Part shown: piece after piece, positions 9,975 to 32,000 of the stretch
Position numbering within the stretch: the stretch's first letter is position 1
Layout of the letters: each line of letters begins with the position of its first letter
DNA from: Candidatus Harpocratesius repetitus
GTDB lineage: Archaea; Asgardarchaeota; Lokiarchaeia; Sigyniarchaeales; Promethearchaeaceae
Assembly (NCBI GenBank): GCA_021498095.1
Contig: JAIZWK010000001.1
Coordinates: forward strand, 540,001 to 572,000
Length of the DNA stretch: 32,000 bases
Direction: 5' to 3'
Translations under genes and position numbers: made by a program
The notes under the pieces: model-generated
Told to the model about the DNA's origin: nothing
The model's database searches: none
The model's input: only the letters and a program-made list of their open reading frames with translations

Positions 9975-12900
9975 TTACTTCTTTTTTAATTCTGAAAGTG
10001 CCGCTTGCATGATTTTATTTTGAGTATGGTGAGCTCGAATACTTAAAATGGCAATAACTCTATCTTTTATTTCTTTCCTTTCATATTTCACAATTCTTTT
10101 TAAAGCAAGAACAACAGATTCTTCCAACTGAATAGGGGATTCATCTGATAAATGAGAAAGCAATTGTGGTATAAGTATTTCTGAATCGATTTTTCTAGAT
10201 AATCTAACTAAGGCAGATATTGCTGCATTCCGGATGGTTTCTTTTGGATCTGCCATGAGTTTCACAAATATAGGAAATATAAGATTAAAGTTTTCTTGAT
10301 TTAATGTTCCAATCCATTTCACAAATGCAAGTAAAACTTCTTCATCTTCAGTAGAAATATGAATTCTTTCAAGAACTGATTTTATATTAACCATTTTTTT
10401 TTGGTCTTCATCCAAAGATCCCAGAATATTCAAAATAGATTTTCTAGTCCACTTGTTTGGATCTTCAAGTAATTTTAGAAGATTTGAAAATATTAGTGTA
10501 TCATGCGATTTCAGAGAAATTTCGACTAAACTTTTAAGACAAGTATTTTTTACACTGAAATCATCTTCTTTTAATCCTTTCATTAGGATACTTATTGCCT
10601 TTTTTGGAGTAGAACCTCCAATTATTCCTAATATAGTATAACCTTGCTCTCTTACAGATGAATCGACATCGTTTATCATAGTATTGATAAATTTCATTGA
10701 GATTAAATTAGGATCTTGTTTTACTAAACTTGAAATCATTTTTGCAATGGAGATTCTTAAAGATTTACTTGATGTCTTAAATGTCTTTAAAAGATCATTA
10801 AGAAAGGGCTTCAATTCAATTAAATTTGTGGAATTGACAGACTTAATGATATTTAGCAATTCAATTTTAATTTTATCTGAGGATTCCTTTTTCCAAATAT
10901 TAAATAGAGTTTTTGGAGATATATCAATAGAATGTATACTACAATAATCAGATAAGACACGTACAGCATTAATTTTTGAATTATCATTCTTTGAAGAAAT
11001 GTTTTGAATAAGTAAGGGAATAATCTGGTTTGGAAATTGCTTTGTAATGTTTAGTACTGTCTGTACAATTTTCCCACGTGTTAAAATACTTTCAGTGTCG
11101 GATTCTTTAATTAATTCTGAAACAATAAACTTTGGATCTTGTTGAGCCATCTCAATTAATTGAGATTGAGCAATTCCTGCAAAATCTCCATCATTGGATT
11201 TAATGTATAATTTTAACACCGAAAGAACTTTTGAGGGTGCCTGTTTCCAGATATATGGAAAAAGCGAAATAAAGAGTTTCTGAATCTCGAAAGATTTTCC
11301 TTTTGCGGCGTTTAGCAAATAATCAATAGAAATACCAAATGGTTTTTCTTGAAGATACGATTTAAGTCCCAGAAAGGCAGCATTTCTTATAGAAATATTG
11401 TGATCAAATAAATGATCTTTGAAAATATCAATGGGAATATGATTTTTTTCGAAATCTCCAATCTTAGCAAGAGTCTCCAATATTATTGCTTTAGTCTTTG
11501 GATTAACACTTGAAGTCATTTCTATTAATTTCGATATACTTAATGATTCTATATCAATTGTTGCAATTTCACCCGCAATTCGAGCCACTGCTTCTTGAAT
11601 TTGGGGATGTGGATCATTTAATCGAGAAATGAAAATTGAATGGTCTACTTGATCTGGAAATGCAGAAAGAATACGGAGAACTTTCCCTTGAACATTATAA
11701 TCTGGATAATTTAAGAGAGAAAGTAATTTTTGCCGCAATTTAGAACTTAGTTTTTGATTCATATCATTTGATGTATATTTTAAAAATAATATTTGTAGAC
11801 ATAATTCTTTATGAAAGTGATTTCTATTTGAGAGAATACTAAGAAACAAATCTTCATTGATTTTTTGAAGACATTGAAGAGTATCATTAGAAAAACATTC
11901 CAAAATTGAAGTAACCATATCAGGATTCTCTGATTTGAGCCCAATTTCAACAAGGGGGAAAAATTTCTCAGGATATTCAATCATTAACCTTGTGAATAGT
12001 TTTTGGCTCCAATAATACCCATAAATAAATGTTCTATCAGATAAAGCATCAAAAAGAGGATCTATAAATCGATCTTGATCAAAACTTAATCCCCGTTTAT
12101 TTGGAATCCTTAAATACATTCGTTCTAGTGATTCATAGGCAAATTTTTGTTCGGATTCTGGTTGATAACGAATCATATTAAAACCAGGAATTGGATTAAA
12201 CTTCTCTTCTGCCGATGTAACTGTTCCTATAAATGCATTTCGAATAGCTTTATGGTTTTTTTGAATAAAAAAGAAATAGGAAATTATTACAAAAAGCATG
12301 AATTCTTCAATAACTCCAATTAAATTCAACTCAGTATAGAGTTCAACGCGATTCCCATATTTATTAATTCCACGTAAATCGTAAAAAGTTGCAGTAATAT
12401 CCCATTTCATAAATAATTCTTGAAAAACATAAGGTCTAGCAATTAAATAATTAAGCATTATATTAATTCCCATCGCTGCAATTAAGAAAGTGGAAAATAG
12501 TATAGATTGTGTGGAAGATTTTACTTTTCGTTTCCAATATCGATTAAAGTATGCAGTAATGGCCAAGGCGAGAGAAATAGGAATAGACCAATCTACATTG
12601 TACCATGATACTGTATATGGAACATAGTTAATATCAAATCGAGAAATAGTTGCAACTGTTCGATAAATAAAATAAATATAAGAATAGAAAAGAGTTCCGT
12701 AAACAATATAGGTCATAGGATCTCTAAAGAATTCCTTTATAGCACGATTACTTTGATCAAAATGTAGAAAAGTAGATCGAGGTAAATGGGGAAGACTGAT
12801 AGTAAAGATACCAAAGGCGATTATATAGCCTACTGATGCATAGTAAAGAATAATGACCATTGGATAAATTAACTGCCAACTAAGCCACGCAATAATAAAT

Positions 12901-13412
12901 TTCACATGGAACACTAAAGTCAATAATACAGGGGGAAGAACAATAGCTAATCCATAGATAATTATAGCTAAAACATAACTCCAAGGTTTTGAGAAGTATT
13001 TGATTAATTTTTCAAAAGGTTGTTGAAAAGGAGTGGTACTAATTTCATGAGAAAAATGAGCCATGAAAAGAAATTCAATAAGTGGATAAATTGAAATAAA
13101 AGTTAAACAGAAAATAAGCGGAATTAGAAGAAATACTGCTTGATCTTGATAACCCCAATCATTTAAATCAAGAATAAAGGTTACAATTGTTGTTGCTACA
13201 ATAGTTAAGCCATTTCCAAAGAAAAAGGCGAAAATTATGCATTTTAAAGTATCATTCCATTTCCAAAATTCCTTTTTTACCAATTTTACTTGTGATGCCA
13301 TGAGATAATATCCAGCAAGAAAGCTAAGGATAAGAAATATAATTAAACCGATTGTCCATGAATTTATTGAAGTAGGAATACTAAATATATCCCAGATATC
13401 CTTGAATTTCAT
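9975..13412 (-). CDS. Polytopic membrane protein fused to a long HEAT/ARM-repeat alpha-solenoid
   Basis: About 8-10 hydrophobic helices in aa 1-385, then many HEAT-type units (LNDPHPQIQEAVA, LFDHNISIRNAAFLGL, INDVDSSVREQGYTIL, LKEDDFSVKNTCLKSL, LEDPNKWTRKSILNIL, MADPKETIRNAAISAL). Confidence 0.85.
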   Translation of the reverse strand: MKFKDIWDIFSIPTSINSWTIGLIIFLILSFLAGYYLMASQVKLVKKEFWKWNDTLKCIIFAFFFGNGLTIVATTIVTFILDLNDWGYQDQAVFLLIPLIFCLTFISIYPLIEFLFMAHFSHEISTTPFQQPFEKLIKYFSKPWSYVLAIIIYGLAIVLPPVLLTLVFHVKFIIAWLSWQLIYPMVIILYYASVGYIIAFGIFTISLPHLPRSTFLHFDQSNRAIKEFFRDPMTYIVYGTLFYSYIYFIYRTVATISRFDINYVPYTVSWYNVDWSIPISLALAITAYFNRYWKRKVKSSTQSILFSTFLIAAMGINIMLNYLIARPYVFQELFMKWDITATFYDLRGINKYGNRVELYTELNLIGVIEEFMLFVIISYFFFIQKNHKAIRNAFIGTVTSAEEKFNPIPGFNMIRYQPESEQKFAYESLERMYLRIPNKRGLSFDQDRFIDPLFDALSDRTFIYGYYWSQKLFTRLMIEYPEKFFPLVEIGLKSENPDMVTSILECFSNDTLQCLQKINEDLFLSILSNRNHFHKELCLQILFLKYTSNDMNQKLSSKLRQKLLSLLNYPDYNVQGKVLRILSAFPDQVDHSIFISRLNDPHPQIQEAVARIAGEIATIDIESLSISKLIEMTSSVNPKTKAIILETLAKIGDFEKNHIPIDIFKDHLFDHNISIRNAAFLGLKSYLQEKPFGISIDYLLNAAKGKSFEIQKLFISLFPYIWKQAPSKVLSVLKLYIKSNDGDFAGIAQSQLIEMAQQDPKFIVSELIKESDTESILTRGKIVQTVLNITKQFPNQIIPLLIQNISSKNDNSKINAVRVLSDYCSIHSIDISPKTLFNIWKKESSDKIKIELLNIIKSVNSTNLIELKPFLNDLLKTFKTSSKSLRISIAKMISSLVKQDPNLISMKFINTMINDVDSSVREQGYTILGIIGGSTPKKAISILMKGLKEDDFSVKNTCLKSLVEISLKSHDTLIFSNLLKLLEDPNKWTRKSILNILGSLDEDQKKMVNIKSVLERIHISTEDEEVLLAFVKWIGTLNQENFNLIFPIFVKLMADPKETIRNAAISALVRLSRKIDSEILIPQLLSHLSDESPIQLEESVVLALKRIVKYERKEIKDRVIAILSIRAHHTQNKIMQAALSELKKK

Positions 13413-13502: not shown

Positions 13503-14069
13503 ATGAGCCCGCTTTCAATAAAAAATAAATTAAAACGAGATCAAAATAAGTACATACATCAAAAAGTAGATGTAATTGTAACCAAGGAATTTCCTTCTTT
13601 TCATATTTTGGGAAAGCACATTGGTCCGTTTAAATTAGGGCATCCAATGACAATCGATCAATATATTGCACGAATTTTAGTTGAAGAAGGAATTGTTAAA
13701 TTTGATGATACTAAGCATTTAAATCGAAAAGGAATTCAGAAAATTAATTTTCAAGAATCTACAAATCCTGAATTGGGAAAAATCGCTGAAAACTTTATTT
13801 ATACACAAGCACGAGAACAACTGGAGATCATGAATAAACTCTACGAACAAGGAAAAATTCCACGACAAGAGTTTAAACAATTGCTCAGTGATGTAAACGA
13901 TTTAATTCGCGTCCGTTTAGCAAAAATTAACCGGCTTGCCGTACAAACGGGCAGAAGTCAATCTGAACGCAATTTAACGCAAGAAGAACGCATTCTTTTT
14001 GATGAAATTGCAAGCAAAATTAATGAATGGAAAACTGCTTTAGGAAAAGTTAATTCGAAATATAATTGA
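13503..14069 (+). CDS. gins23: GINS complex subunit, Gins23 (Psf2/Psf3-like) type
   Basis: N-terminal beta B-domain (VDVIVTKEFPSF...GPFKLG...IARILVEEG), followed by a helical A-domain ending RLAKINRLA...LTQEERILFDEI...W. The B-before-A order defines the Gins23 class. Confidence 0.8.
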   Translation: MSPLSIKNKLKRDQNKYIHQKVDVIVTKEFPSFHILGKHIGPFKLGHPMTIDQYIARILVEEGIVKFDDTKHLNRKGIQKINFQESTNPELGKIAENFIYTQAREQLEIMNKLYEQGKIPRQEFKQLLSDVNDLIRVRLAKINRLAVQTGRSQSERNLTQEERILFDEIASKINEWKTALGKVNSKYN

Positions 14070-17415: not shown

Positions 17416-19851
17416 ATGGCTCTTTTGCTTTCTGCAGAAAAAGTAGATGAATTTTTCGGGATAAAATCATCCATGTTTAAAAGGTTTAGATCTTCGATTA
17501 ACTTAAAGCAGAAAGAAGATGCTATCTTTCAAGAGAAATTTAACATTGGATATAAAAAATGGAAATTATTCTTCCGATCTTTCTATAGTGAAGTTAATTT
17601 AAGTAGAAATCTCTATTTTCTTCATATTTATTGTGTAATTCTGGTAAAAGGTTTGCAATTTATTTTTTTTTCTACTTATTATTTTAACGATATAACAGAG
17701 AAAATGAAAGAGGAAAAGAAAGATAACAAAAAAGTGAACAGGAAAAATATTACTAAATTAAATGATTTTTTTCCAGAAATATTCGATTTAGATTTTTTCT
17801 CTTGGATTTTTCAAGATAATCAGTTGTACTCATTAATTCAAAACCTTTTTCAAGCAGATTGTTTTTATCGACTCAAGAATTCATCAATATCAATTCCTTC
17901 TGATTTGTTTCATGTTTTTTATCAAAATTTAATCAGTTCAGAAGTTCGCCATAATCTGGGAGAGTTCTATACTCCACCTGAACTAGCAAATCAAATGATC
18001 AAAAATCGCTATAAGTTTGGACTAAAAATTATGGATCCAGCATGTGGAACTGGTGTATTTTTAATAGAAATTATAAAAGAAATAATCAACAAATCAGATC
18101 GTTCAAAGAAAGATAAATTAAGTGCTCTTAAACAAATCTATGGATTTGATATTAATCCTATTGCATGTCTTTTTGCCAAATTGAATTTTCTACTAACTCT
18201 TCACTTTCATGGGATAGAATATCCAATTAATGAACTTCATATTTATAATGAAAGCGTACTGTTTTGGAAAAACAAGTTCTTTCCAATATCTATGATACAA
18301 AAGAAGTTTGACTTAATAATTGGTAATCCTGCTTGGATCACAGTGAAGAGTATGCAGGATTTAGAATATAAGGAGCAAATAAAAAACCTTGCGAAAATAC
18401 TGGAATTAAAACCAACTACTCATCAAATACCTAATATTGAAATCAGTGCACTTTTCTTTTACCAATGTCGAGATTATTTGGTAGTTAAAGGTAAAATAGG
18501 ATTTATTGTAAGTAAGGCTTTTATTAATGGAAGCAATCATGCATTAACGCGGAAATTTACGGATTTTGATGAAATTTCAATTTGGACTTTTGATAAAAAT
18601 TTATTTCCTATATCAAATATATGCTTATTTGCAAGATATAATCCTCCTTTGAGAAGAACCGAAGAAGAATTAAAAGAATTACAAATTGAAGAAATTCAGT
18701 TTCAAATTGAAAAAATAGGACAAAGCTTAAGAATTAAACAATTAAATCGTATTTTCTTGGTTCCGTACAGAATTGAAAAGCATAAAAACCAGCTGCTGGT
18801 TACTAAATTAATAGGATTAAAAGAAAAAAAGGCATTAACAGAGCTACTCCCTCACGGAATAAATCAATATAAGAATTCATGCTATCGTGGAGCAGATATT
18901 TTTCCCCGTGCTTTACTTTCTGTCTTTCCAAAACAAAGTTCTTCTGGTAGGATATTTATTCAACCTATAACAAATGAGTCTAAATTGACTTGGGATTTCG
19001 ATCTTGAAAAAAAATTGGAAGAATTCCCCGAAATAATTAAAAAGGGAAAAATTTTCATGGATTCTTCTTATATTTTTCCTGTTTTGAAAAGTAAACACTT
19101 GGTCCCCTTTACATATCTTTACTGGGATTATGCTTTTATTCCCATCCAGGAAAATAAAAAGACGGGCGGGTATGCTCGTATCTCAGAATCAGAAACATTA
19201 GCTTGGCGCTATTATCAAGTCTTAGAACAAATTTTCCAACAAAATTTCAAAACAGGTGCATCTATTCGGACTTTATGGGAAAGAATGAACTATCATAATA
19301 ATTTAATCCAACCTAGGCATCGAAGTCCGTATAAAGTTGTTTATCAACGGAGTGGATCATATGTAAAGGCTTGTATTATTAAGGAACCAAAAGTTATTGT
19401 CGATACAACTAACTATTTTCTTGCTTTCTCAAATTTAGATGAAGCATATTATGTATTAGGCTTCTTAAATGCTCCAGATTTAACTAAAGCTATTCAAATC
19501 GAAAAATCTGCGCGTGATATTCACAAGCTTCCCTTTACATTCTATTTACCCAAATTTGATCCAGACGACCAAAACCATCAAAATCTTATAAAACAAGCCC
19601 AGATCATGGAGAAAAAAGCTAAACAAATCGCCTTATCTGCAGTTAAATCCTTTTTAAATAAAAATCAAGCAGAACTGAAAATTACAGAATTCTATAATGT
19701 ACCCGTTTTAAAGACAATTAAAGCGCGCCAAATTCAATCCCAAATCTATAATTCCTTAGGTTGGAATCCAAAAAAAGATAGCATTTCTGAAGATTTTGAA
19801 AAGTTGAATCATCTTGTTCGGTTAGTTGTTTCTGAAAATAAGAATAGTTGA
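17416..19851 (+). CDS. N6-adenine DNA methyltransferase (type IIG/Eco57I-like MTase plus target-recognition region), no evident nuclease domain
   Basis: LGEFYTP, SAM-binding motif I (IMDPACGTGVFL), YGFDINP, motif IV variant IIGNPAW, and a C-terminal TRD-like region (YKVVYQRSG...EAYYVLGFLN...RDIHKLP). Confidence 0.88.
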   Translation: MALLLSAEKVDEFFGIKSSMFKRFRSSINLKQKEDAIFQEKFNIGYKKWKLFFRSFYSEVNLSRNLYFLHIYCVILVKGLQFIFFSTYYFNDITEKMKEEKKDNKKVNRKNITKLNDFFPEIFDLDFFSWIFQDNQLYSLIQNLFQADCFYRLKNSSISIPSDLFHVFYQNLISSEVRHNLGEFYTPPELANQMIKNRYKFGLKIMDPACGTGVFLIEIIKEIINKSDRSKKDKLSALKQIYGFDINPIACLFAKLNFLLTLHFHGIEYPINELHIYNESVLFWKNKFFPISMIQKKFDLIIGNPAWITVKSMQDLEYKEQIKNLAKILELKPTTHQIPNIEISALFFYQCRDYLVVKGKIGFIVSKAFINGSNHALTRKFTDFDEISIWTFDKNLFPISNICLFARYNPPLRRTEEELKELQIEEIQFQIEKIGQSLRIKQLNRIFLVPYRIEKHKNQLLVTKLIGLKEKKALTELLPHGINQYKNSCYRGADIFPRALLSVFPKQSSSGRIFIQPITNESKLTWDFDLEKKLEEFPEIIKKGKIFMDSSYIFPVLKSKHLVPFTYLYWDYAFIPIQENKKTGGYARISESETLAWRYYQVLEQIFQQNFKTGASIRTLWERMNYHNNLIQPRHRSPYKVVYQRSGSYVKACIIKEPKVIVDTTNYFLAFSNLDEAYYVLGFLNAPDLTKAIQIEKSARDIHKLPFTFYLPKFDPDDQNHQNLIKQAQIMEKKAKQIALSAVKSFLNKNQAELKITEFYNVPVLKTIKARQIQSQIYNSLGWNPKKDSISEDFEKLNHLVRLVVSENKNS

Positions 19852-24098: not shown

Positions 24099-26180
24099 CT
24101 ATTTTGATATTTTCACCATATCAAGATCCATTTTAAGCAATTCTTGCAAAAATACATCAAAACATCCAACATTCCCAGAGAAATTAGCGAGTTCTTGCCT
24201 ATAAATATCATAAAATCGGTGATAAATAAAGGATAATACTTTTTTTGATTCATCAACTGTTGAATAAATCGAACAACGGCCTAAAATGAAAAATTCTTTA
24301 TCTGGTTCCAAATAAAAATCAAATCGGCTTTCTCCCATCTGAATACTCTGGATCTCTTTTTTAGTAAGTTCTTTACTAAAATTTTGAAGAGCTGAAAGAA
24401 ATCCACCTAAAAGAATAGAATCAAAAGAAAGTTCTGGTGCATATGTAAATAATTCGATCCCACTACTGCTGAATATCCATAAATCACGTAAAATACCCAA
24501 TTTTGATGTCTGTTCACTCCTTCTCGCCAATAATTGTTCCTTTAACCTTTCTTTTTGCCGAAGATAGTAATTTTTTTTTTCTACATCATCATTATAAATT
24601 ATAATTAAAAGATCCAAAATTTCTTCCATTTCCACAACGGGTTTATTTATTTTTTTATAATGATTAAGCGCAGTAATTAATTCTATTATAGCTTCTTGTT
24701 TTTGTTCCGAAAGAAGAAGATTTTTTCCTAATATAAGATGGAATTTTGCAATAGATAAGCGATCTAATAAAATAAAATTTGCTGTATCTTGCATGAAAAA
24801 CTGCAGTAAATTAACATTTTGTTCGAAATGTCCAAATTTTTCGTGAATTTGAACAATTTGAAGTAGAAATCTAATTTTATTAGAAAAATCATTCATATTT
24901 TCACAAGAATCGATGGTTTTTTCAAGATAATACACTTGTTCAGAATAATTATCATCAAAACTATAGATTTGCGAAATAAGTGGATAAATCATGATCAATT
25001 GGTTATAATCTTTTAGTTTTTCCCAGATTTCTGCAGCTTGGGCGAGATATTCAAGAGAATTTTTTAACTCTGAATTTTCGTGAATGTTTATTTGCTGCCA
25101 TTTTTCAATTCCTGCATTTTTAATGGAATCTATTGCGCGGTAATAATATTGCAATGCTAAATGATAATTAATTAACCCTTTTTGTTTAAGCATATTTTGA
25201 CTAAGATCTTGAATTTGATTAGAGTTGAAAAATTGATTTGATTTAATAAATTCCTCTATCGCTTTACTATAAAGATTCAATTTTGAATAACTTCTACCAA
25301 GGATGAAATGATATTGATAAAATGAGATATATTTAGCTTTTTTAAGTGAAATTGATTTTAGTTGTTTAATTGCTTTGGAATATTGAAAACTTGAATATAG
25401 AGAAAAGCCCAATAAAAATTGGCTTGTTTCGAGATACTTTTGGTGATTTAATTGCTTTGCAATAGGAATCAATTTCTGAAATATGTTTACCGCTGCATTA
25501 TATTTCTTTTCTTTAATTATCATTGTCCCCTTAAGATAAAGTGCTTCCATGTAAAGCTTTTCATGATTTTCCATGCTAAACTTTTCAAGAGGTTTTTGAA
25601 GTAATCTGTACGCATATTTGAAATTTCTATTTTGAAACTCTACAAGAGCTTTTTTAAAATCCTCGACAGCGACAGAAAAAGAATAATTTGAATCAATTTG
25701 CACTTCTGATTCCAGTGATTCTTCTAGGGATTGGTAAACTTTTAAGAATTTTGGGATAATCTCATCAGATGAAATGATGTCTTGAAATTTATCAATTCCT
25801 TTAAGCGTGATTTGTAAAGCAAATTGCTCTATAATTTCGTCATATTCCGGAAGAAGATGTTCTGAGTATTCATCGGGAAAAACAACAGCAATACAAAATG
25901 GCTGCCAATTCATTGAAAATGATTCTTGCTTTGTGTGAATAAGTACTCTTCCCCTTATTTCATATAAATTAAAGGGAATTGAAATGTTAAAAGAAGAGAA
26001 ATCGCTCCAAAATTTCTCTAATAATAGTGATTTTGCATTTAGAAATATTTGGCGAGTAATTATATTTGGATTTCCAAAATTCCATGGGTTTGGTTCTAGT
26101 AAATCGATTTTAGGACCTTCATTTTCATCCCAATGAGCAAAAATCACTCCAAGATGAGCCTTTTGTGAGATTTCTGTCAA
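24099..26180 (-). CDS. Longin-like domain, TPR array, C-terminal longin domain (eukaryotic-signature-type protein)
   Basis: N-terminal LGVIFAHWDENEGPKI...PFCIAVVFP is uDENN/NPR2-type longin-like. Central TPRs (LYLKGTMII..AAVNIFQKL; FLLGFSLY; HFILGRSYSKL; HLILGKNLL). C-terminal LWIFSSSGIELFTY...LLGGFLSALQNFSKEL...FYDIY...F.G....F..F is the classic longin/sedlin-like pattern. TTG start with AGGAG about 10 nt upstream. Confidence 0.75.
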   Translation of the reverse strand: MTEISQKAHLGVIFAHWDENEGPKIDLLEPNPWNFGNPNIITRQIFLNAKSLLLEKFWSDFSSFNISIPFNLYEIRGRVLIHTKQESFSMNWQPFCIAVVFPDEYSEHLLPEYDEIIEQFALQITLKGIDKFQDIISSDEIIPKFLKVYQSLEESLESEVQIDSNYSFSVAVEDFKKALVEFQNRNFKYAYRLLQKPLEKFSMENHEKLYMEALYLKGTMIIKEKKYNAAVNIFQKLIPIAKQLNHQKYLETSQFLLGFSLYSSFQYSKAIKQLKSISLKKAKYISFYQYHFILGRSYSKLNLYSKAIEEFIKSNQFFNSNQIQDLSQNMLKQKGLINYHLALQYYYRAIDSIKNAGIEKWQQINIHENSELKNSLEYLAQAAEIWEKLKDYNQLIMIYPLISQIYSFDDNYSEQVYYLEKTIDSCENMNDFSNKIRFLLQIVQIHEKFGHFEQNVNLLQFFMQDTANFILLDRLSIAKFHLILGKNLLLSEQKQEAIIELITALNHYKKINKPVVEMEEILDLLIIIYNDDVEKKNYYLRQKERLKEQLLARRSEQTSKLGILRDLWIFSSSGIELFTYAPELSFDSILLGGFLSALQNFSKELTKKEIQSIQMGESRFDFYLEPDKEFFILGRCSIYSTVDESKKVLSFIYHRFYDIYRQELANFSGNVGCFDVFLQELLKMDLDMVKISK

Positions 26181-26255
26181 ATCAATGAACTCCTTTTAGT
26201 TAAGAAAAAAAAGACTAATAAAATAATTTGTTTTTAAAAAAGATTTAATCTTTAA

Positions 26256-29000
26256 TTAGATAAATTTATTTAACCGTTCCAATATTTGGCTATAGAGTTC
26301 AACAGTTTTTTCGATGTCTCCTTGATCCAAGGTATTCTGAGCTTCTCTTGAGAGATTATCTACAAGAATCTTCAAATTTTCGAATTGAGTCATTTCAATC
26401 ATTTGATATTCATGTAATATTTCATTTTCTTGCGGGATTTCTTTAAACGCCCATTTAATCAATGCACCAACTTGTTGTTCATTTTGAGCTTCAGGAAGAA
26501 TGTTTTTTGGTAATTTTATTTGATAATGATAAAAAGTAGGGATAATATCTTCAATTATTACACCTAAAATTGCTTGTGGAAATTTATTTTTGAAATACAT
26601 TGTTGCTTTGAACAACCCCTCATGGGAATAGGTTTTAATTCTTGTATGGGTTTTAATAACCTTTAGTTGATTCTTTAATGGAACTAAAACAGTTCGCGAT
26701 ACACGTTGCCGTAATTCATAATTTATTGTAATTGATTTTTTTACAGGGATATCATTTAATTTCCAATGAAGAACCAATCCTTCTTTCTGTAATTCTTCAC
26801 TTGGTTGAATTTTCTTTTCGATTCCATCTATTGTTATATCTGAAATTTCAAAATTATAAGGAATAATGTCTTCAATAATAGCTTCGGCAATAGCATCGTT
26901 AAATGGATTTTCAAAACCAGAATTCACCCTAAATGGAGAAATTTTTGAAGTTTCTTCAGAATTTTTATTTAAATCTGGAGAATACATAGATATTTGTGAT
27001 TTTGATTTAATTTCCATTGTTTCACCTGATTTACTTGTAAGTAATAAAGAACTTTCCATTTCTTTCTTAACATCTACACGTTGTTCATCTAATAACGCGC
27101 CTATTTGAGCAAAAGCTTCATTTATATCATCTGATAAGTTCGGTAAAATATCTTCTAAAGATAAATCTTCAACTAAAGGAAGGACATTTTTCTCTACCTT
27201 GATTATTTCTTCAACTTCTTTGGCTTTTTCAAGTAATTTTGTCTGTTCTTTGTTATGTTGACTCAAAATCTCCTCTATTTTCGTCAAAGCAAGTTTTTGG
27301 AGATCATTATATTTATATATCTCGCCATCTTTTTCAATTAAAGGAAGAATCTCTATAATACGCTCCGTATTTCGTTTCAATGCCTGCCATTGAAGATTAT
27401 TCTTATTTTCTTTAATTTCACTGCGAAGCCGATTATATAAAGATAAGTTTTCTTCATAAGCTGCCTTTTTTTTCTCTATTGATCTTTTTATTTTCTCTAA
27501 ATGTTCTTTATTTTCAGGAGAATTAGATAGAATTTCGTTAGAAAGAAAAATAGCAAGATCACTAAGAATTTTATTATATTGCTTTTGGTTTTCCAGTTCA
27601 GGAAGGATTTCTTCCCAAGAATTAATCTTTTTAACCAAATCTTCCAAGAGCTTAAGATTAGTTACTCTTTCATTGATTTGATCTCGATAATCCGATACAT
27701 CCTTTTGTAATTCTTCGTCTTTTGTTTGTAGCGCAAATAAATAAAGTTTTTCCACATGGCTAAAAGTTTCTGGAAACTGATGATTACTCAAAAATTGTTC
27801 TATTTCTTCTTTTGCATTTTGTATATATTCTATATTTTTATTTCTTTTTGATTGTGTCTCTTTTTCCTGTTTAGTCCATGCATCTTTTAATTCTTGTAAT
27901 GTCTCTTTTTCCTGTTTCCATCTGATTAATTCAGAAGAATGATTGGATGAATTAAGAAAATCGATTATTTGATTAAGAGTTTGAAATGCATGCTCATATT
28001 CATGCTTATATTTTGCATCTTCATAGCGTTCTTTAAACATTTTTAATTTTTGATTAAATTTCTGCTCCTCTTTTTCCCATAGTTTATAATCATCCTCAAT
28101 TTTATCAATTTTTTCTTTGATTAAAGAATTAATTTCTAATTCAGGAATTTCTTCATGAATTCGTAATATTTTCTGACCAATTCGATGAAGATCCTTTAGA
28201 TTTCTTTCAGGAAAAAGTGCTTCAAACTGTTCTAAGAGTTCTTGAAAATCTTTTTTTTGTCGTAAGTAATTATCATAAAGTATTTTTTCAGAATTTAATG
28301 AACGTTGGAATTTTGAAGGTATTGATTCATTGAAGAGAATGGAATAATATTCGCGAATCACCTCAGAAGTATTATGAGCATCGATAAATTTTTTATCCTT
28401 AATTAGAGAGTCAAGCTTTGCAATCATATGGGGAATTTGGCCCTTAATCTCAGATTTTCTTGATTTCAAATCTTTTACACGAAGAATTTGTTCTTTTAAT
28501 TTAGTGTATTCTTCAATAATATCCCAATCATAAATTTCGCGGGCAGTTTGAATAAGTTGTTCGATGTAATTTAATGCAGTTTCGAAATTACCTACATTTT
28601 TGGCTGATGTAATGTTAATCTTTAAATCACTCAGAAAAGCATATTTCTCAAGACGGAATTCAGCCCACCTTCTTTGTTTTTTTCTAATCAAATCTTGATC
28701 AAGTAGTGTATCTGCCCAAAAATCACTTGATTCATTCCCTTCATCCACTGTAAAATGACGAATTATCGATATGTCTGGGTTCTTTTCCAATATTATTTTT
28801 TCTGCTATCGGAATTGAATTTTTTAATTTTTGTCCTGCATTCTTTCCTATCCAAATATAAAGTCGCCTTTTTTCATTATGGTATAAATAAATTACATTAA
28901 CAGAAATTAGTTTCGATGGGAGATCATCTAAATCCAATTCTTCAATTTGTCCATCAGGTTTGAGAATATACAAAAGAAGATTTTTTGATTTACTATTCAT
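26256..29000 (-). CDS. Gelsolin-like domain, helical-hairpin/coiled-coil repeats, two cytosolic Ig-like domains, terminal helical hairpin
   Basis: N-terminal LISVNVIYLY..RLYIWIGKNA...VDEGNESSDFW matches the gelsolin repeat pattern (L.S.DV...YIW.G....EG.E..eF). Two IEDIIP...W..I....Y units lie 107 aa apart. No signal peptide or TM. Confidence 0.75.
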   Translation of the reverse strand: MNSKSKNLLLYILKPDGQIEELDLDDLPSKLISVNVIYLYHNEKRRLYIWIGKNAGQKLKNSIPIAEKIILEKNPDISIIRHFTVDEGNESSDFWADTLLDQDLIRKKQRRWAEFRLEKYAFLSDLKINITSAKNVGNFETALNYIEQLIQTAREIYDWDIIEEYTKLKEQILRVKDLKSRKSEIKGQIPHMIAKLDSLIKDKKFIDAHNTSEVIREYYSILFNESIPSKFQRSLNSEKILYDNYLRQKKDFQELLEQFEALFPERNLKDLHRIGQKILRIHEEIPELEINSLIKEKIDKIEDDYKLWEKEEQKFNQKLKMFKERYEDAKYKHEYEHAFQTLNQIIDFLNSSNHSSELIRWKQEKETLQELKDAWTKQEKETQSKRNKNIEYIQNAKEEIEQFLSNHQFPETFSHVEKLYLFALQTKDEELQKDVSDYRDQINERVTNLKLLEDLVKKINSWEEILPELENQKQYNKILSDLAIFLSNEILSNSPENKEHLEKIKRSIEKKKAAYEENLSLYNRLRSEIKENKNNLQWQALKRNTERIIEILPLIEKDGEIYKYNDLQKLALTKIEEILSQHNKEQTKLLEKAKEVEEIIKVEKNVLPLVEDLSLEDILPNLSDDINEAFAQIGALLDEQRVDVKKEMESSLLLTSKSGETMEIKSKSQISMYSPDLNKNSEETSKISPFRVNSGFENPFNDAIAEAIIEDIIPYNFEISDITIDGIEKKIQPSEELQKEGLVLHWKLNDIPVKKSITINYELRQRVSRTVLVPLKNQLKVIKTHTRIKTYSHEGLFKATMYFKNKFPQAILGVIIEDIIPTFYHYQIKLPKNILPEAQNEQQVGALIKWAFKEIPQENEILHEYQMIEMTQFENLKILVDNLSREAQNTLDQGDIEKTVELYSQILERLNKFI

Positions 29001-29122
29001 TTGCAGTCACTAATTTTAAGTAATACGCGCTTTTAGTATTTCAGCTAATAAATTTTTAGCCTACAACCGCTAAATTATTTTAGGATCAATCTCACATTCT
29101 TGTATTACACTTACTTCATCAT

Positions 29123-29127
29123 AGGAG
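29123..29127 (+). promoter_or_regulatory. Shine-Dalgarno AGGAG for smc
   Basis: AGGAG ends 12 nt upstream of the ATG at 29140. Confidence 0.5.
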
Positions 29128-29139
29128 TTCTACATTTCA

Positions 29140-32000
29140 ATGACTTATATTAAACGAGTAGTAATGACGGGTTTCAAATCCTTTGGAAACCGAACAGTAT
29201 CAGTTAATCTTGCCAAAGGTTTTACATGTATTGTCGGACCAAATGGAAATGGTAAGTCCAATGTTATAGATGGGCTTTGTTTTGCTTTAGGGCGTCTGGC
29301 AAAATCGACTATGCGGGCAACAAAACTAACAGACTTAATCTTTGCGGGTTCCAAAAAGGTAAAGCCCGCTACTCGAGCAGAAGTTGAAATAGTATTTGAT
29401 AATAAAGATCGAGTCTTTCCTTCAGATTCTGATGAATTTAAGGTCTCTCGATGGATTAAACGGAGTGGAACTAGTGGCTACCGAATTCAAGGGAAAGCTT
29501 CAACCCGAACAGCTATTCTAAATGCTCTGGCTCAAGCTAATATTGATCCAGATGGTTCAAATCAATTTGTTCTCCAAGGAAAAATTGTAGAACTAACCCA
29601 TATGAGCCCAAATGCGCGTAGAGAATTCATAGAAATGTTAATTGGACTAAGTAAATATGATGAAATGAAAGATAAAACATTAAAAGAGTTAGAAAAAGCA
29701 GATAAAGATTTGGGACAATTTGAAGCAATTTTCAAAGAAGTATCAGTTCAATTAAAAAAAGTGGAAAAGGAAAAAAATGATGCTTTACGATGGAAAGAAC
29801 TTGATAATCAGGTAAATCTTTTCAATGCACAACTGATTGCCTTAAAGATCCATAAAATGCGCCAAGAAGAAGACGATATTGCCACAGAAATGGAATCCAC
29901 TCAGTTGGTGATTGAGGATTTAAAAAATCGAATTCAGCGCCAAAAAGATAAAATTGAGGCAGAAGCACTCTACTTAAAAGGTCTTGAAGAGGATATTTCT
30001 GCACAAGAGACAGAAAAATCCAAAATGGATGAAGAAATCACTTCTCAAAAATCAGAACTTTCAGCTAAAGAAGCAACTTTAAAAGCAACTGAAGAAAATT
30101 TAAAACGGCTTCAGCAAAATATCGAGAAATTAGAAGATCTTCAGCAAAAACTGGAAGAAGGTCAAACTTATGATGATTTAATTAACAAAACAAAAGAAGA
30201 AATTGAAAATCTTCAGCAAGCTTTAGATGAAAATTCAGGATTAATTGATGAAAATAAAGCGAAACAGAAAGAAGAAGAACAAATAATTGCACAAATAAAT
30301 AATGAAAAAGCCCAAATTAATAAAGAAATCTCCAAAATCAAACAGGATGGTAAAGCTTTAACTACTGAAATCAAGCTTTTGGAAAAAACTATTAAAAAGA
30401 ATGAGAAAAAGAGAGCTCAACTAGAAAAAGATTTGAAAAAGTTACAGAAAGACGCAGAAAGTGTAACTGAAGCGATGGAACAAGCAAAAAATGAAGCCAA
30501 ATCCATTCAAGAAAAAATTTCAACATTGAAAAAGCAAATTACTGAGCAAAAATCACTACAAAAACAACTTGATGGAGAAATCCAAAAGCTAGAAGTAAAA
30601 CGTGACAAATTTTCGAAATCACAAGCAGAAATTCAAGCTTCCATCTCTTCTGCAGGTGCAGAAATTAACATGCTTGAAACCCGTATACAAGAACTTGAAA
30701 AGAAGAAAAAAGATTATAGAAACGAGTATGAAAAACTAACAAAAGGCCAAGCAGTTGAAGACCAAATCAAAACTTTAAAAGTCGAAGAAAAAGAAATCTC
30801 ACAACAGTTAAAAAAGCTTAAAGAAAAACTTATTTCCGCAAATGATGAGCAAAAACGAAGTCAAAATAAACAAGAAACCTTGGAATTGAAACGACGAGCA
30901 TTAGAAGGAGAATTGACCGACCTTGAAAAACGTCTTTCTGGATTACGTGTTGAACTAAAAACGGCAGAATCAGAACTTCATACTTCACAACGGGAAAAAC
31001 AACATAAAGATATTATCAAAGAAAATTTAATAAAAGAAATTACAATCCAAAAAGAACAAAAAGAGAAATTGCAAAATCAAGTTGAAAATTTTCAAGCTAA
31101 AATAAACCAAATGAAAAAAGAGCGCGCTAAACTTCAAGAAACAATTGATAAAAAGGAAGAAGAATATGGTCAAACTCAACTTGAATTAAACACAGTACTC
31201 GATAATCTAACGAATTTGATTCAAGATATTGATCGCTCTGCAGGTGATATCAAATCTGATATTCAAAATGTTAGTCAAGTTGCAATTGATGAATCAGGAA
31301 AAGTTTTCAAAGAATTTGTGCTCGATGTCACCGATATGTTGCGATCTATAGAAGAAATATCAGAAATGAATCCTGAAGATCCAAAAGAAATCCAGGAACA
31401 ACTGAATTTTGCAGTAAATACTTTAAAATTATTAATTGAAAATGCAGAACAACCACTAATTCAACTTAATGAAGTCGTTCAAGATGCTAGTGATGAAGCA
31501 TTAAAAGAATCTACTGGTAATTTCGATGGATTTATACAAGATTTTACAGATAAATTCGATTCAATTCGTGTTGCTTTACAAGCTGTCGCAGTAGCAGATA
31601 CATCAGAACATTATCGAGCATTAGAGGATCTGAATTCTGCTATTAGTTCCCAATCTGAAGAGCTCTCGAAAATATCAGTTCAGCTAACTCGAATCACAGC
31701 TCAACTGGAACAAAAAGAACGTGAATTATCACAAATCAATTCGGAATTAAAACAGTTACAAACAAAAATTGATGAAGCAGAGAAGAAATCTAAAATAGGT
31801 AAAAAAGAAAATGAAGAAAAAACCAAAAAATCTGAAGAAATAAAAGAAGAAATCGCAAAAATAACCTCCACAATTTTAGATATAAAAAAATCTTCTGAAA
31901 ATTTTTGGAAACATACAAAATCCCTACAAAATGAAATCGATAAAAAAGCAGAAATTCTTTCACAAATTACTGAAGATCTAAATAAATTGAGCAATGTAAA
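29140..32000 (+). CDS. smc: SMC-family chromosome segregation ATPase (3' partial; absent from the ORF track), atypical long arm with no canonical hinge visible
   Basis: Hand translation gives 953 codons without a stop: MTYIKRVVMTGFKSFG...Walker A IVGPNGNGKSNVIDGLCFALG, R-loop MRATKLTDLIFAG, VFDNKDR, Q-loop FVLQGKI, then coiled coil from about aa 170. Confidence 0.93.
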   Translation, partial: MTYIKRVVMTGFKSFGNRTVSVNLAKGFTCIVGPNGNGKSNVIDGLCFALGRLAKSTMRATKLTDLIFAGSKKVKPATRAEVEIVFDNKDRVFPSDSDEFKVSRWIKRSGTSGYRIQGKASTRTAILNALAQANIDPDGSNQFVLQGKIVELTHMSPNARREFIEMLIGLSKYDEMKDKTLKELEKADKDLGQFEAIFKEVSVQLKKVEKEKNDALRWKELDNQVNLFNAQLIALKIHKMRQEEDDIATEMESTQLVIEDLKNRIQRQKDKIEAEALYLKGLEEDISAQETEKSKMDEEITSQKSELSAKEATLKATEENLKRLQQNIEKLEDLQQKLEEGQTYDDLINKTKEEIENLQQALDENSGLIDENKAKQKEEEQIIAQINNEKAQINKEISKIKQDGKALTTEIKLLEKTIKKNEKKRAQLEKDLKKLQKDAESVTEAMEQAKNEAKSIQEKISTLKKQITEQKSLQKQLDGEIQKLEVKRDKFSKSQAEIQASISSAGAEINMLETRIQELEKKKKDYRNEYEKLTKGQAVEDQIKTLKVEEKEISQQLKKLKEKLISANDEQKRSQNKQETLELKRRALEGELTDLEKRLSGLRVELKTAESELHTSQREKQHKDIIKENLIKEITIQKEQKEKLQNQVENFQAKINQMKKERAKLQETIDKKEEEYGQTQLELNTVLDNLTNLIQDIDRSAGDIKSDIQNVSQVAIDESGKVFKEFVLDVTDMLRSIEEISEMNPEDPKEIQEQLNFAVNTLKLLIENAEQPLIQLNEVVQDASDEALKESTGNFDGFIQDFTDKFDSIRVALQAVAVADTSEHYRALEDLNSAISSQSEELSKISVQLTRITAQLEQKERELSQINSELKQLQTKIDEAEKKSKIGKKENEEKTKKSEEIKEEIAKITSTILDIKKSSENFWKHTKSLQNEIDKKAEILSQITEDLNKLSNV

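Follow-up and report, generated by a model that had tools for sequence, protein, structure and literature searches.

Toward the end of the 32,000-nucleotide window analyzed here (the whole stretch from position 540,001 to 572,000 of Candidatus Harpocratesius repetitus contig JAIZWK010000001.1; G000:C1:540001-572000), three large genes encode a longin–tetratricopeptide repeat (TPR)–longin protein (P0001), a scaffold protein with a gelsolin domain (P0002) and a long SMC (structural maintenance of chromosomes) protein. These genes probably represent two unrelated units placed back to back by a genus-specific rearrangement, i.e., an SMC–kleisin–kite operon and a gelsolin-scaffold/longin-TPR-longin cassette, for which a role in small-GTPase and Lokiactin functions is proposed. 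This reading draws on the domain identities of the gene products, on the synteny of the operon and of the gelsolin/longin pair, and on the small-GTPase genes that recur as neighbours of the cassette family. An earlier note, made from the sequence of this window, had joined all three genes into one module coupling DNA, or an SMC-derived tether, to the actin cytoskeleton and membrane. Its by-eye gene identities (SMC, gelsolin-like and longin-TPR) hold on profile and structure evidence, and so does its linkage of the gelsolin-like and longin-TPR genes, but the SMC was not found to belong to the module. The proposed DNA–actin–membrane system therefore dissolves into two ordinary neighbours.

Gene order of the SMC operon and the gelsolin/longin cassette

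Each protein was searched against 41 genomes of the order and the neighbourhoods of the matching open reading frames (ORFs) were compared. The window of the present genome (G000) lies on a single contig of 4.36 Mb with ~30% G+C, and two close relatives, the NCBI Harpocratesius assembly (L069) and a metagenomic contig (L067, Logan ERR15087787), were recovered by exact-protein look-up. Word-indexed homologue searches gave 9 and 2 proteins, and alignments were built from genome loci instead. All three ORFs and the divergent gap between smc and P0002 lie exactly where the earlier note had placed them, and the T-tracts that it had reported between the gelsolin and longin genes were read as well (Table 1).

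P0002 was found upstream of smc only in the present genome and in the genus-level relatives G002, L069 and L067, with a divergent spacer of 115-139 bp across these four lineages. In Lokiarchaeum ossiferum B-35 (G010), ~340 kb separate smc (3.398-3.402 Mb) from the P0002/P0001 homologues (3.742-3.747 Mb), and the upstream neighbour of smc is a gene encoding a clostripain-like protease (1129 aa). The upstream neighbours of smc are unrelated in G011, G004 and G019, and in G005 smc and the gelsolin/longin pair are found on different contigs. The L. ossiferum homologues of the window genes at 9975-13412 and 13503-14069 are ~4.5 kb from smc, whereas the same interval before smc in the present genome is filled by ~15 kb of variable genes (Eco57I-type methylase, Lrp-like regulator, histidine kinase and the pair), which explains the juxtaposition of smc and the pair. 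A gene for an Eco57I/MmeI-type N6-methylase (type IIG-like) was observed near the pair here (window 17416-19851, plus strand) and directly upstream of it in G005 (L039:13173-15755).

Directly 3' of smc, on the same strand, are a 366-aa gene and a 331-aa ScpB gene (L004:4656-6778; window coordinates ~33655-35777), so that both scpA and scpB, which had been proposed as genes to look for downstream, are present. The ScpB gene matched PF04079 at 1.2e-33. Comparison of a profile of the 366-aa family with the PDB gave ScpA chains only (6ivh_A at 2.9e-4 for the N-terminal domain and 5h66_C at 0.09 for the C-terminal winged helix); Pfam ScpA (PF02616) failed to match the kleisin-like gene in this genome. 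The scpA-like and scpB genes thus complete an smc–kleisin–kite operon in which smc is the first gene. G000, G002, L. ossiferum and G011 share the gene order smc–scpA–scpB–GFO oxidoreductase–radical S-adenosylmethionine (SAM), the smc–scpA–scpB trio is kept in G004, and in G019 the block is broken by two inserted genes. Both partner proteins have N-termini that are unusual for prokaryotic ScpA and ScpB, i.e., a tail of ~85 residues rich in Lys, Ser and Thr in the ScpA-like protein and an acidic extension of ~160 residues with repeated 'GE(E/K)IDTEE(K/R)I' units in ScpB. In contig L067 (L067:1-7095), scpA/scpB are not found after the long smc; instead, three genes of 166, 203 and 394 aa lie behind it on the other strand, the 166-aa gene encoding an acetyltransferase. 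This smc operon is broken or rearranged, yet the SMC–gelsolin–longin adjacency is retained.

Because the SMC belongs to a conserved operon of its own and adjoins the gelsolin-domain gene within one genus only, the proposed three-gene module is unsupported; the linkage was not found beyond close relatives, and adjacency within one genus is expected from descent alone. It is highly improbable that smc and the gelsolin-like and longin-TPR genes form one module that is co-regulated from the 139-bp region and tethers DNA or an SMC-derived rod to actin and membrane. The divergent arrangement in four genus-level lineages, a conserved short motif in the spacer and the atypical nature of the SMC (long arms and no detectable hinge) would be compatible with such a module, which is nevertheless already largely refuted by synteny: the adjacency is absent from every other genus examined (L. 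ossiferum, G011, G004 and G019, with separate contigs in G005), the kleisin and kite of the SMC are encoded in its own operon, which is conserved without the pair, and the pair is present without SMC in other genera, next to other neighbours, e.g., an Arf GTPase. The 14-nt motif CTTTWAGKATTTCA, located within window 29030-29054 and conserved in an alignment of the four genus-level relatives, is present twice in G002 as a direct repeat (L035:10479-10593). This motif may serve as a promoter element or be bound by a regulator, and a putative promoter function of the 139-bp region is suggested by its sequence. Less probable still is a function that arose within this genus, in which expression of the gelsolin/longin cassette would be coupled, through back-to-back promoters, to that of the hinge-less SMC complex. 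If true, this would link chromosome organisation or segregation to the actin cytoskeleton, as an archaeal forerunner of cytoskeleton-driven chromosome handling.

By comparison, the cassette itself is conserved more widely. A P0002-type gene followed by a P0001-type gene was found in three genera (the present genome, L. ossiferum and G005) as well as in contigs L067 and L071. The L. ossiferum pair (UYP46866.1 and UYP46867.1) has the same order and orientation as the pair described here, with a 41-bp gap, while the G005 genes overlap by 4 bp, stop and start overlap in L067, and the distant metagenomic contig L071 has a 673-aa gene with a 681-aa TPR gene after it. In the sister species G002, a decayed P0001 remnant (L035:13339-14125, G002:C6) lies at the expected place beside an intact 914-aa ortholog; it consists of an N-terminal fragment with 'GVIIVNWD' and the final ~30 codons (57% identity with P0001 660-689), which indicates an internal deletion or a collapse in the assembly of this metagenome-assembled genome. 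Moreover, a paralogous 'type B' pair, i.e., a TPR–longin gene without the N-terminal longin followed by a ~450-aa gene for the β-sandwich module of P0002 only, is adjacent in seven genomes from four genera (G000, G001, G006, G007, G010, G011 and G013), in entirely different flanks. The type B pair of the present genome (564-aa and 484-aa genes; G000:C1:589200-592360 = L041:6201-9361, window coordinates ~49200-52360) lies ~20 kb past the window. Within 4 kb of it, a Ras-family GTPase gene (L041:1984-2532) and a further TPR protein gene (669 aa) were observed.

The adjacency of two paralogous pairs across genera is good evidence that the β-sandwich module and the TPR/C-terminal-longin part are functionally linked, and the type B β-sandwich proteins retain the pairing without a gelsolin domain. 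Some observations weigh against a working pair. The pairing is not universal, as the longin-TPR gene stands alone in G008 and tandem gelsolin-module genes are found without longin-TPR in G019 and G003, and in the present genome the T-tracts of the 75-bp spacer could act as a transcription terminator that separates the two genes. The solitary genes, the loss of most of the longin-TPR gene beside an intact 914-aa gene in G002 and the fact that the pair-bearing genomes are all of one family, plus a few metagenomic contigs, would be consistent with two genes that are neighbours by inheritance only and whose products do not work together. This explanation is nevertheless very unlikely: although the flanks change completely, both paralogous versions of the pair, whose gene orders are reversed relative to each other, stay adjacent in several genera, and the stop/start overlaps in G005 and L067 indicate co-translation units. 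The two proteins of the cassette would therefore be expected to work together, as the co-occurrence of the β-sandwich module with the TPR/C-terminal-longin part suggests.

Domain architecture of P0002 and P0001

The AlphaFold2 (AF2) model of P0002 was built from 28 family sequences and has a mean predicted local distance difference test score (pLDDT) of 84.5; the ortholog in G002 is 57% identical. Alignment of the N-terminal domain (residues 8-98) with Thorarchaeota ProGel (7c2f_D) in VIA gave Z 13.0 and a root-mean-square deviation (rmsd) of 1.9 Å over 88 of 88 residues, and domains of fragmin, gelsolin, adseverin and villin aligned with VIA Z 9.7-11.2. Foldseek assigned a probability of 1.0 to adseverin, gelsolin and villin domains. 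This domain has the gelsolin fold, in which a long helix and a short one enclose a central β-sheet. A profile of 13 family N-termini matched villin (2.8e-7), ProGel (4.6e-7), adseverin (2.4e-6) and Lokiarchaeota 2DGel (2.6e-5), and the gelsolin hallmarks LYxWxG and ExxxF are conserved in the family, with W50, E90 and F94 invariant. P0002 alone matched Pfam Gelsolin below threshold (14.9 bits vs 21, E 0.024).

Further analysis of the remaining parts of P0002 gave non-specific matches only for the stalk (MIT-like bundles and TPR-like); the MIT-like three-helix-bundle matches (Z ~9) were rejected, being below the level that is meaningful for helical bundles. The β-sandwich module, which is the part common to P0002 and the type B proteins, contains the motif 'IIEDIIPxxF/Y' twice and has 22 invariant positions in the alignment. 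Its family is small, with 176 clusters in 1.84 billion representatives. DUF11-type matches to this module were weak (2 of 21 members, 3.7e-4), and hhalign gave a 68.7% probability to a DUF11-like neighbour. A search of the module profile against the PDB found no sequence relative, only noise (Gγ, E 0.05). In whole-model fold searches of P0002 (Foldseek PDB, VIA wide and Atlas), the result lists were taken up by matches to the gelsolin and helical parts, with the β-sandwich module barely probed, and the Atlas feature search gave no usable match for P0002. An adaptin-type β-sandwich was considered for P0002 and rejected, the match to Alpha_adaptinC2 (E 0.11) being too weak, and a precomputed flag of 'Adap_comp_sub (weak)' on an L078 neighbour was rejected since it was not reproduced by a separate Pfam scan. 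In two giant proteins, P0127 (2232 aa) and P0158 (4208 aa), a domain that matches the second β-sandwich of the module is repeated 11-12 times in tandem, which fits the reuse of a DUF11/Ig-type repeat in large proteins that may be located at the surface.

The identification of P0001 as a longin-TPR protein proved right, with two longin domains, one at each end of the TPR (AF2 model, mean pLDDT 82). An NCBI protein that is 92% identical to P0001 is annotated as 'tetratricopeptide repeat protein [Candidatus Harpocratesius sp.]'. The N-terminal longin domain aligned with the longin domain of Lokiarchaeota Roadblock-Longin (8yqg_B) with Z 13.5 and rmsd 2.6 Å over 135 residues. The TPR region matched TPR_12 with 34.1 bits (cut-off 30.1) and the TPR of LGN/Pins with Z 18.6, among Foldseek and VIA matches. 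The profile of the C-terminal longin domain matched TRAPP Bet5 (7ea3_D at 5.2e-4, and another match at 4.3e-3), and individual members matched Fuz_longin_1 (3.7e-6, in 2 of 16) and Intu_longin_1 (7.1e-6, in 1 of 16). This type of longin is also found as many stand-alone proteins of 135-150 aa in these genomes. As the longin domains of P0001 itself have no Pfam match, sequence support for their identity is modest; moreover, whole-model fold searches of P0001 (Foldseek PDB and VIA wide) were filled by the TPR and the C-terminal longin was absent from the result lists. A complex prediction of P0001 residues 150-693 with P0002 residues 590-914 (scores 0.44, 0.00 and 0.00) was used neither for nor against an interaction.

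Table 1. Coordinates of genes, spacers and protein domains in the window
Feature	Window position	Strand	Basis
P0001, longin–TPR–longin gene, 693 aa	24099-26180	−	ORF; TTG start, GGAG upstream
C-terminal longin domain of P0001, aa 564-665	24186-24491	−	Profile; Pfam on members; ββαβββα in model
TPR solenoid of P0001, aa 168-556	24513-25679	−	Pfam TPR_12; Foldseek/VIA
N-terminal longin domain of P0001, aa 11-127, ββαβββα	25800-26150	−	VIA-align; model secondary structure
Spacer P0002/P0001, 75 bp	26181-26255	−	Read from sequence; T6 and T8 tracts, GGAG ribosome-binding motif
P0002, gelsolin-domain scaffold gene, 914 aa	26256-29000	−	ORF
C-terminal helical hairpin of P0002, aa 870-913	26262-26393	−	AF2 model; L910 nearly invariant in family
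Conserved C-terminal module of P0002, aa 609-869	26394-27176	−	AF2 strands; short α/β part and two β-sandwiches
All-helical stalk of P0002, ~500 aa, aa 102-596	27213-28697	−	DSSP of AF2 model; helical hairpins and three-helix bundles
Single gelsolin-homology domain of P0002, ProGel/1DGelX-like, aa 8-98	28707-28979	−	VIA, Foldseek, profile
Divergent intergenic region smc/P0002, 139 bp	29001-29139	.	AT-rich; TATA-like stretches in both directions
Long smc, first 953 codons of 1487	29140-32000	+	Open at window end; gene ends at window coordinate 33603
Central conserved helical domain of long SMC, aa ~680-830	31177-31629	+	Conservation peak; no hinge match

The long SMC and its central helical domain

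The 1487-aa SMC has a split ATP-binding cassette (ABC) ATPase head, as Pfam SMC_N covers both ends of the protein (172.7 bits), with a Walker A motif (GPNGNGKS, residues 33-40), a signature motif (LSGGEK, residues 1376-1381) and a Walker B/D-loop (YIMDEIDAALD, residues 1401-1411). The signature motif and the Walker B residues D1404 and E1405 are encoded beyond the window end. The best family match is archaeal SMC (TIGR02169); scored on the first 953 residues only, TIGR02169 (318.7 bits, cut-off 729.4) and TIGR02168 (302.4 bits, cut-off 567.35) were both under the equivalog cut-offs. Orthologs of 1473-1505 aa are found throughout this order of Lokiarchaeia, to which the long SMC complex is specific, and the protein is ~280 aa longer than its canonical paralogue (1487 vs 1206 aa).

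SMC_hinge (PF06470) was not matched in the long SMC, neither at E ≤ 0.1 in the whole protein nor at E ≤ 10 in residues 560-960, and a profile of the central 200 residues of six orthologs found no hinge in the PDB, only designed helical bundles at E > 0.02. In a BLASTP alignment with the canonical paralogue, the heads and arms align and the hinge segment does not. Residues ~680-830 form a local conservation peak, and this central domain was found in 43 of the 201 sampled genomes of the phylum, all of this order except one genome of another family. Judging from these searches, a helical domain restricted to this order apparently stands where the hinge is expected. A point against this reading is that the loss of the hinge is deduced from failed sequence searches only, so that the protein could still have a very divergent hinge. 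The long SMC complex would act on DNA like other SMC complexes and may dimerise or fold back via the helical domain, with no need for a link between its operon and the neighbouring gelsolin/longin genes. If so, the long SMC represents a natural experiment on the need for a hinge in SMC function.

A related domain was observed elsewhere in the genome. A 1041-aa protein with no Pfam match and no ATPase head (G000:C1:3819996-3823121, minus strand = L066:2997-6122) has an N-terminus that is a diverged copy of the central domain of the long SMC (23% identity over 211 aa, E 6e-13), and similar proteins of 925-1118 aa are encoded in G002, G006, G007, G010, G011, G012 and G013. This protein may be a partner or a competitor for the SMC central domain.

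Three SMC-like genes are present in the genome, and a ScpB-like gene is found just downstream of each; the two further loci beside the long one are G000:C1:1712176-1716392 and 1238999-1243949 (L064, L065). The canonical 1206-aa SMC has a clear SMC_hinge match (116.1 bits) and a 196-aa ScpB-like gene comes directly after it, without an intervening kleisin gene. The third, a 1188-aa SMC-like gene with a weak hinge match (23.9 bits), is followed by 268-aa and 186-aa genes, the latter of which is ScpB-like. Asgard archaea have been reported to possess several SMC complexes, some with three kite paralogues beside different SMC/kleisin genes (bioRxiv 10.1101/2024.01.07.573240; multiple complexes also in PMC8665677), and the three SMC–kite loci found here agree with the former report. 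The long SMC also gives further detail on the multiplicity of Asgard SMC complexes, which has been recognised recently.

Small GTPases, Lokiactin and comparison with known systems

An Arf/Ras-family gene was found within two genes of a family member of the cassette at 6 of ~15 lineage-loci. In L. ossiferum, a 171-aa Arf-family GTPase (Pfam Arf, 2.7e-26) is encoded 11 bp after the pair on the same strand; a Ras-family gene is 834 bp away in G005; and Arf/Ras-family genes are located 33 bp away in L073/L074, 155 bp upstream in L075 and one gene away in both L071 and L076. With a background of 49-61 genes per genome matching the Ras model, i.e., ~one per 89-99 kb, this is far above expectation. 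Longin dimers serve as platforms for GTPases in complexes such as TRAPP and Mon1–Ccz1, where they contact the switch regions (summarised in PMC10933270). In Asgard strain MK-D1, GTPase and longin genes do not generally share operons, and Asgard GTPases have rarely been matched to their regulators by genome layout (PMC10933270). A GTPase-linked gelsolin/longin family is therefore unusual, and represents one of few testable Asgard GTPase–regulator matches.

A link to GTPases has to be weighed against several points. The count of GTPase neighbours was made after the pattern had been seen, and the loci are not all independent. In the present genome, as in the closely related L067 and L069, no GTPase gene adjoins the pair, and the L. 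ossiferum Arf-like gene is without a close ortholog in the present genome, where the best match is 29% identical. In addition, no Arf/Ras gene was seen near family members in three other contigs, nor beside most type B pairs.

With regard to actin, Asgard mini-gelsolins provide the most direct comparison. 1DGelX, in which a single gelsolin domain is followed by helical domain X (Akıl et al. 2020, PMC7444086), binds actin with a dissociation constant (Kd) of 7.7 µM and severs filaments in the case of the Thor protein, and Thor ProGel has been shown to bind rabbit actin very weakly, with a Kd of 337 µM (PMC7444086). A preprint on L. ossiferum motility reports proteomes and a co-immunoprecipitation with Lokiactin (bioRxiv 10.1101/2025.11.30.690169). 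One protein listed in that study, GNAMCCOK_03181, is very probably the 847-aa P0002 homologue of L. ossiferum, as its tabled mass of 98.39 kDa is close to the average mass computed for this homologue (98.45 kDa) and the locus index agrees. It is expressed (27 peptides, mean log2 intensity 16.06). It was also detected with Lokiactin, but its enrichment was not significant (log2 ratio 0.78, p 0.34, adjusted p 0.45; bioRxiv 10.1101/2025.11.30.690169), which weighs against an actin role of the cassette. Five gelsolin-homology proteins and an Arf protein that were enriched with Lokiactin in the same study were considered as products of the cluster and rejected, as they are encoded by different genes; that the enriched Arf protein is another gene product counts against the proposed mechanism as well. 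Actin binding by P0002 is thus a prediction from its modelled gelsolin fold.

Taking these data into consideration, the longin domains of P0001 could form a platform for an Arf/Ras-type GTPase, as in TRAPP, Mon1–Ccz1 and longin GTPase-activating protein (GAP) complexes, and the gelsolin domain of P0002 would connect the GTPase switch to Lokiactin filaments. From the domain content and gene neighbourhoods we infer that the cassette proteins may bind each other physically, may have guanine nucleotide exchange factor (GEF) or GAP activity and may bind actin. Alternatively, the pair could be a regulator or effector scaffold of small GTPases without a cytoskeletal role, with the gelsolin fold re-used for protein interaction rather than for actin. 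The non-significant enrichment of the L. ossiferum homologue, the pairing kept by type B proteins that lack a gelsolin domain, the very weak binding of rabbit actin by Thor ProGel, which is the closest structural match, and the sub-threshold Pfam match of P0002 would all agree with this alternative. It is considered rather unlikely, as the gelsolin hallmark features are conserved in the P0002 family, Thor 1DGelX, with the same gelsolin plus helical architecture, both binds actin and severs filaments (PMC7444086), and a non-significant co-immunoprecipitation is compatible with transient or regulated actin binding. The cassette family might thus connect GTPase switching to Lokiactin. Both this question and that of the long SMC can be approached in the cultured L. 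ossiferum, which carries both loci.

Among known systems, the prokaryotic SMC–ScpA–ScpB complex resembles the first of the two units in its ABC head halves, its Walker A, signature and Walker B motifs and its operon with kleisin-like and ScpB genes. The long SMC unit differs from it in the length of the SMC, in the helical domain that apparently replaces a detectable hinge, in the extended ScpA and ScpB N-termini and in the sub-cut-off family score.

For the cassette, P0001 shares with the longin GTPase platforms (TRAPP Bet5/Trs23, LD1 of Mon1–Ccz1/Fuzzy–Inturned and Asgard Roadblock-Longin; PMC10933270, PDB 8yqg) the longin folds, here at both ends, and the recurrent GTPase neighbours. These platforms consist of two longin subunits, whereas P0001 has both longins in one chain with ~390 aa of TPR between them, and, in contrast to TRAPP, has no TRAPPC3/Bet3 partner and no adjacent GTPase in this genome. 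P0002 differs from 1DGelX in size (914 aa, compared to a protein near actin size on gels) and in the addition of the ~500-aa stalk, the tandem β-sandwich module, the terminal hairpin and the longin-TPR partner gene. It resembles the mini-gelsolins 1DGelX/B35_GelX in having one N-terminal gelsolin domain followed by a helical region of no known actin-binding homology (PMC7444086; bioRxiv 10.1101/2025.11.30.690169), and a sister family contains ~350-aa proteins that match P0002 residues 6-350. Finally, compared to the gelsolin/longin-TPR-longin/Arf cluster of L. ossiferum, the present locus is without an Arf gene, has T-tracts in its spacer and is located next to the smc operon, but the two clusters are formed by the same two families, in the same order and orientation.

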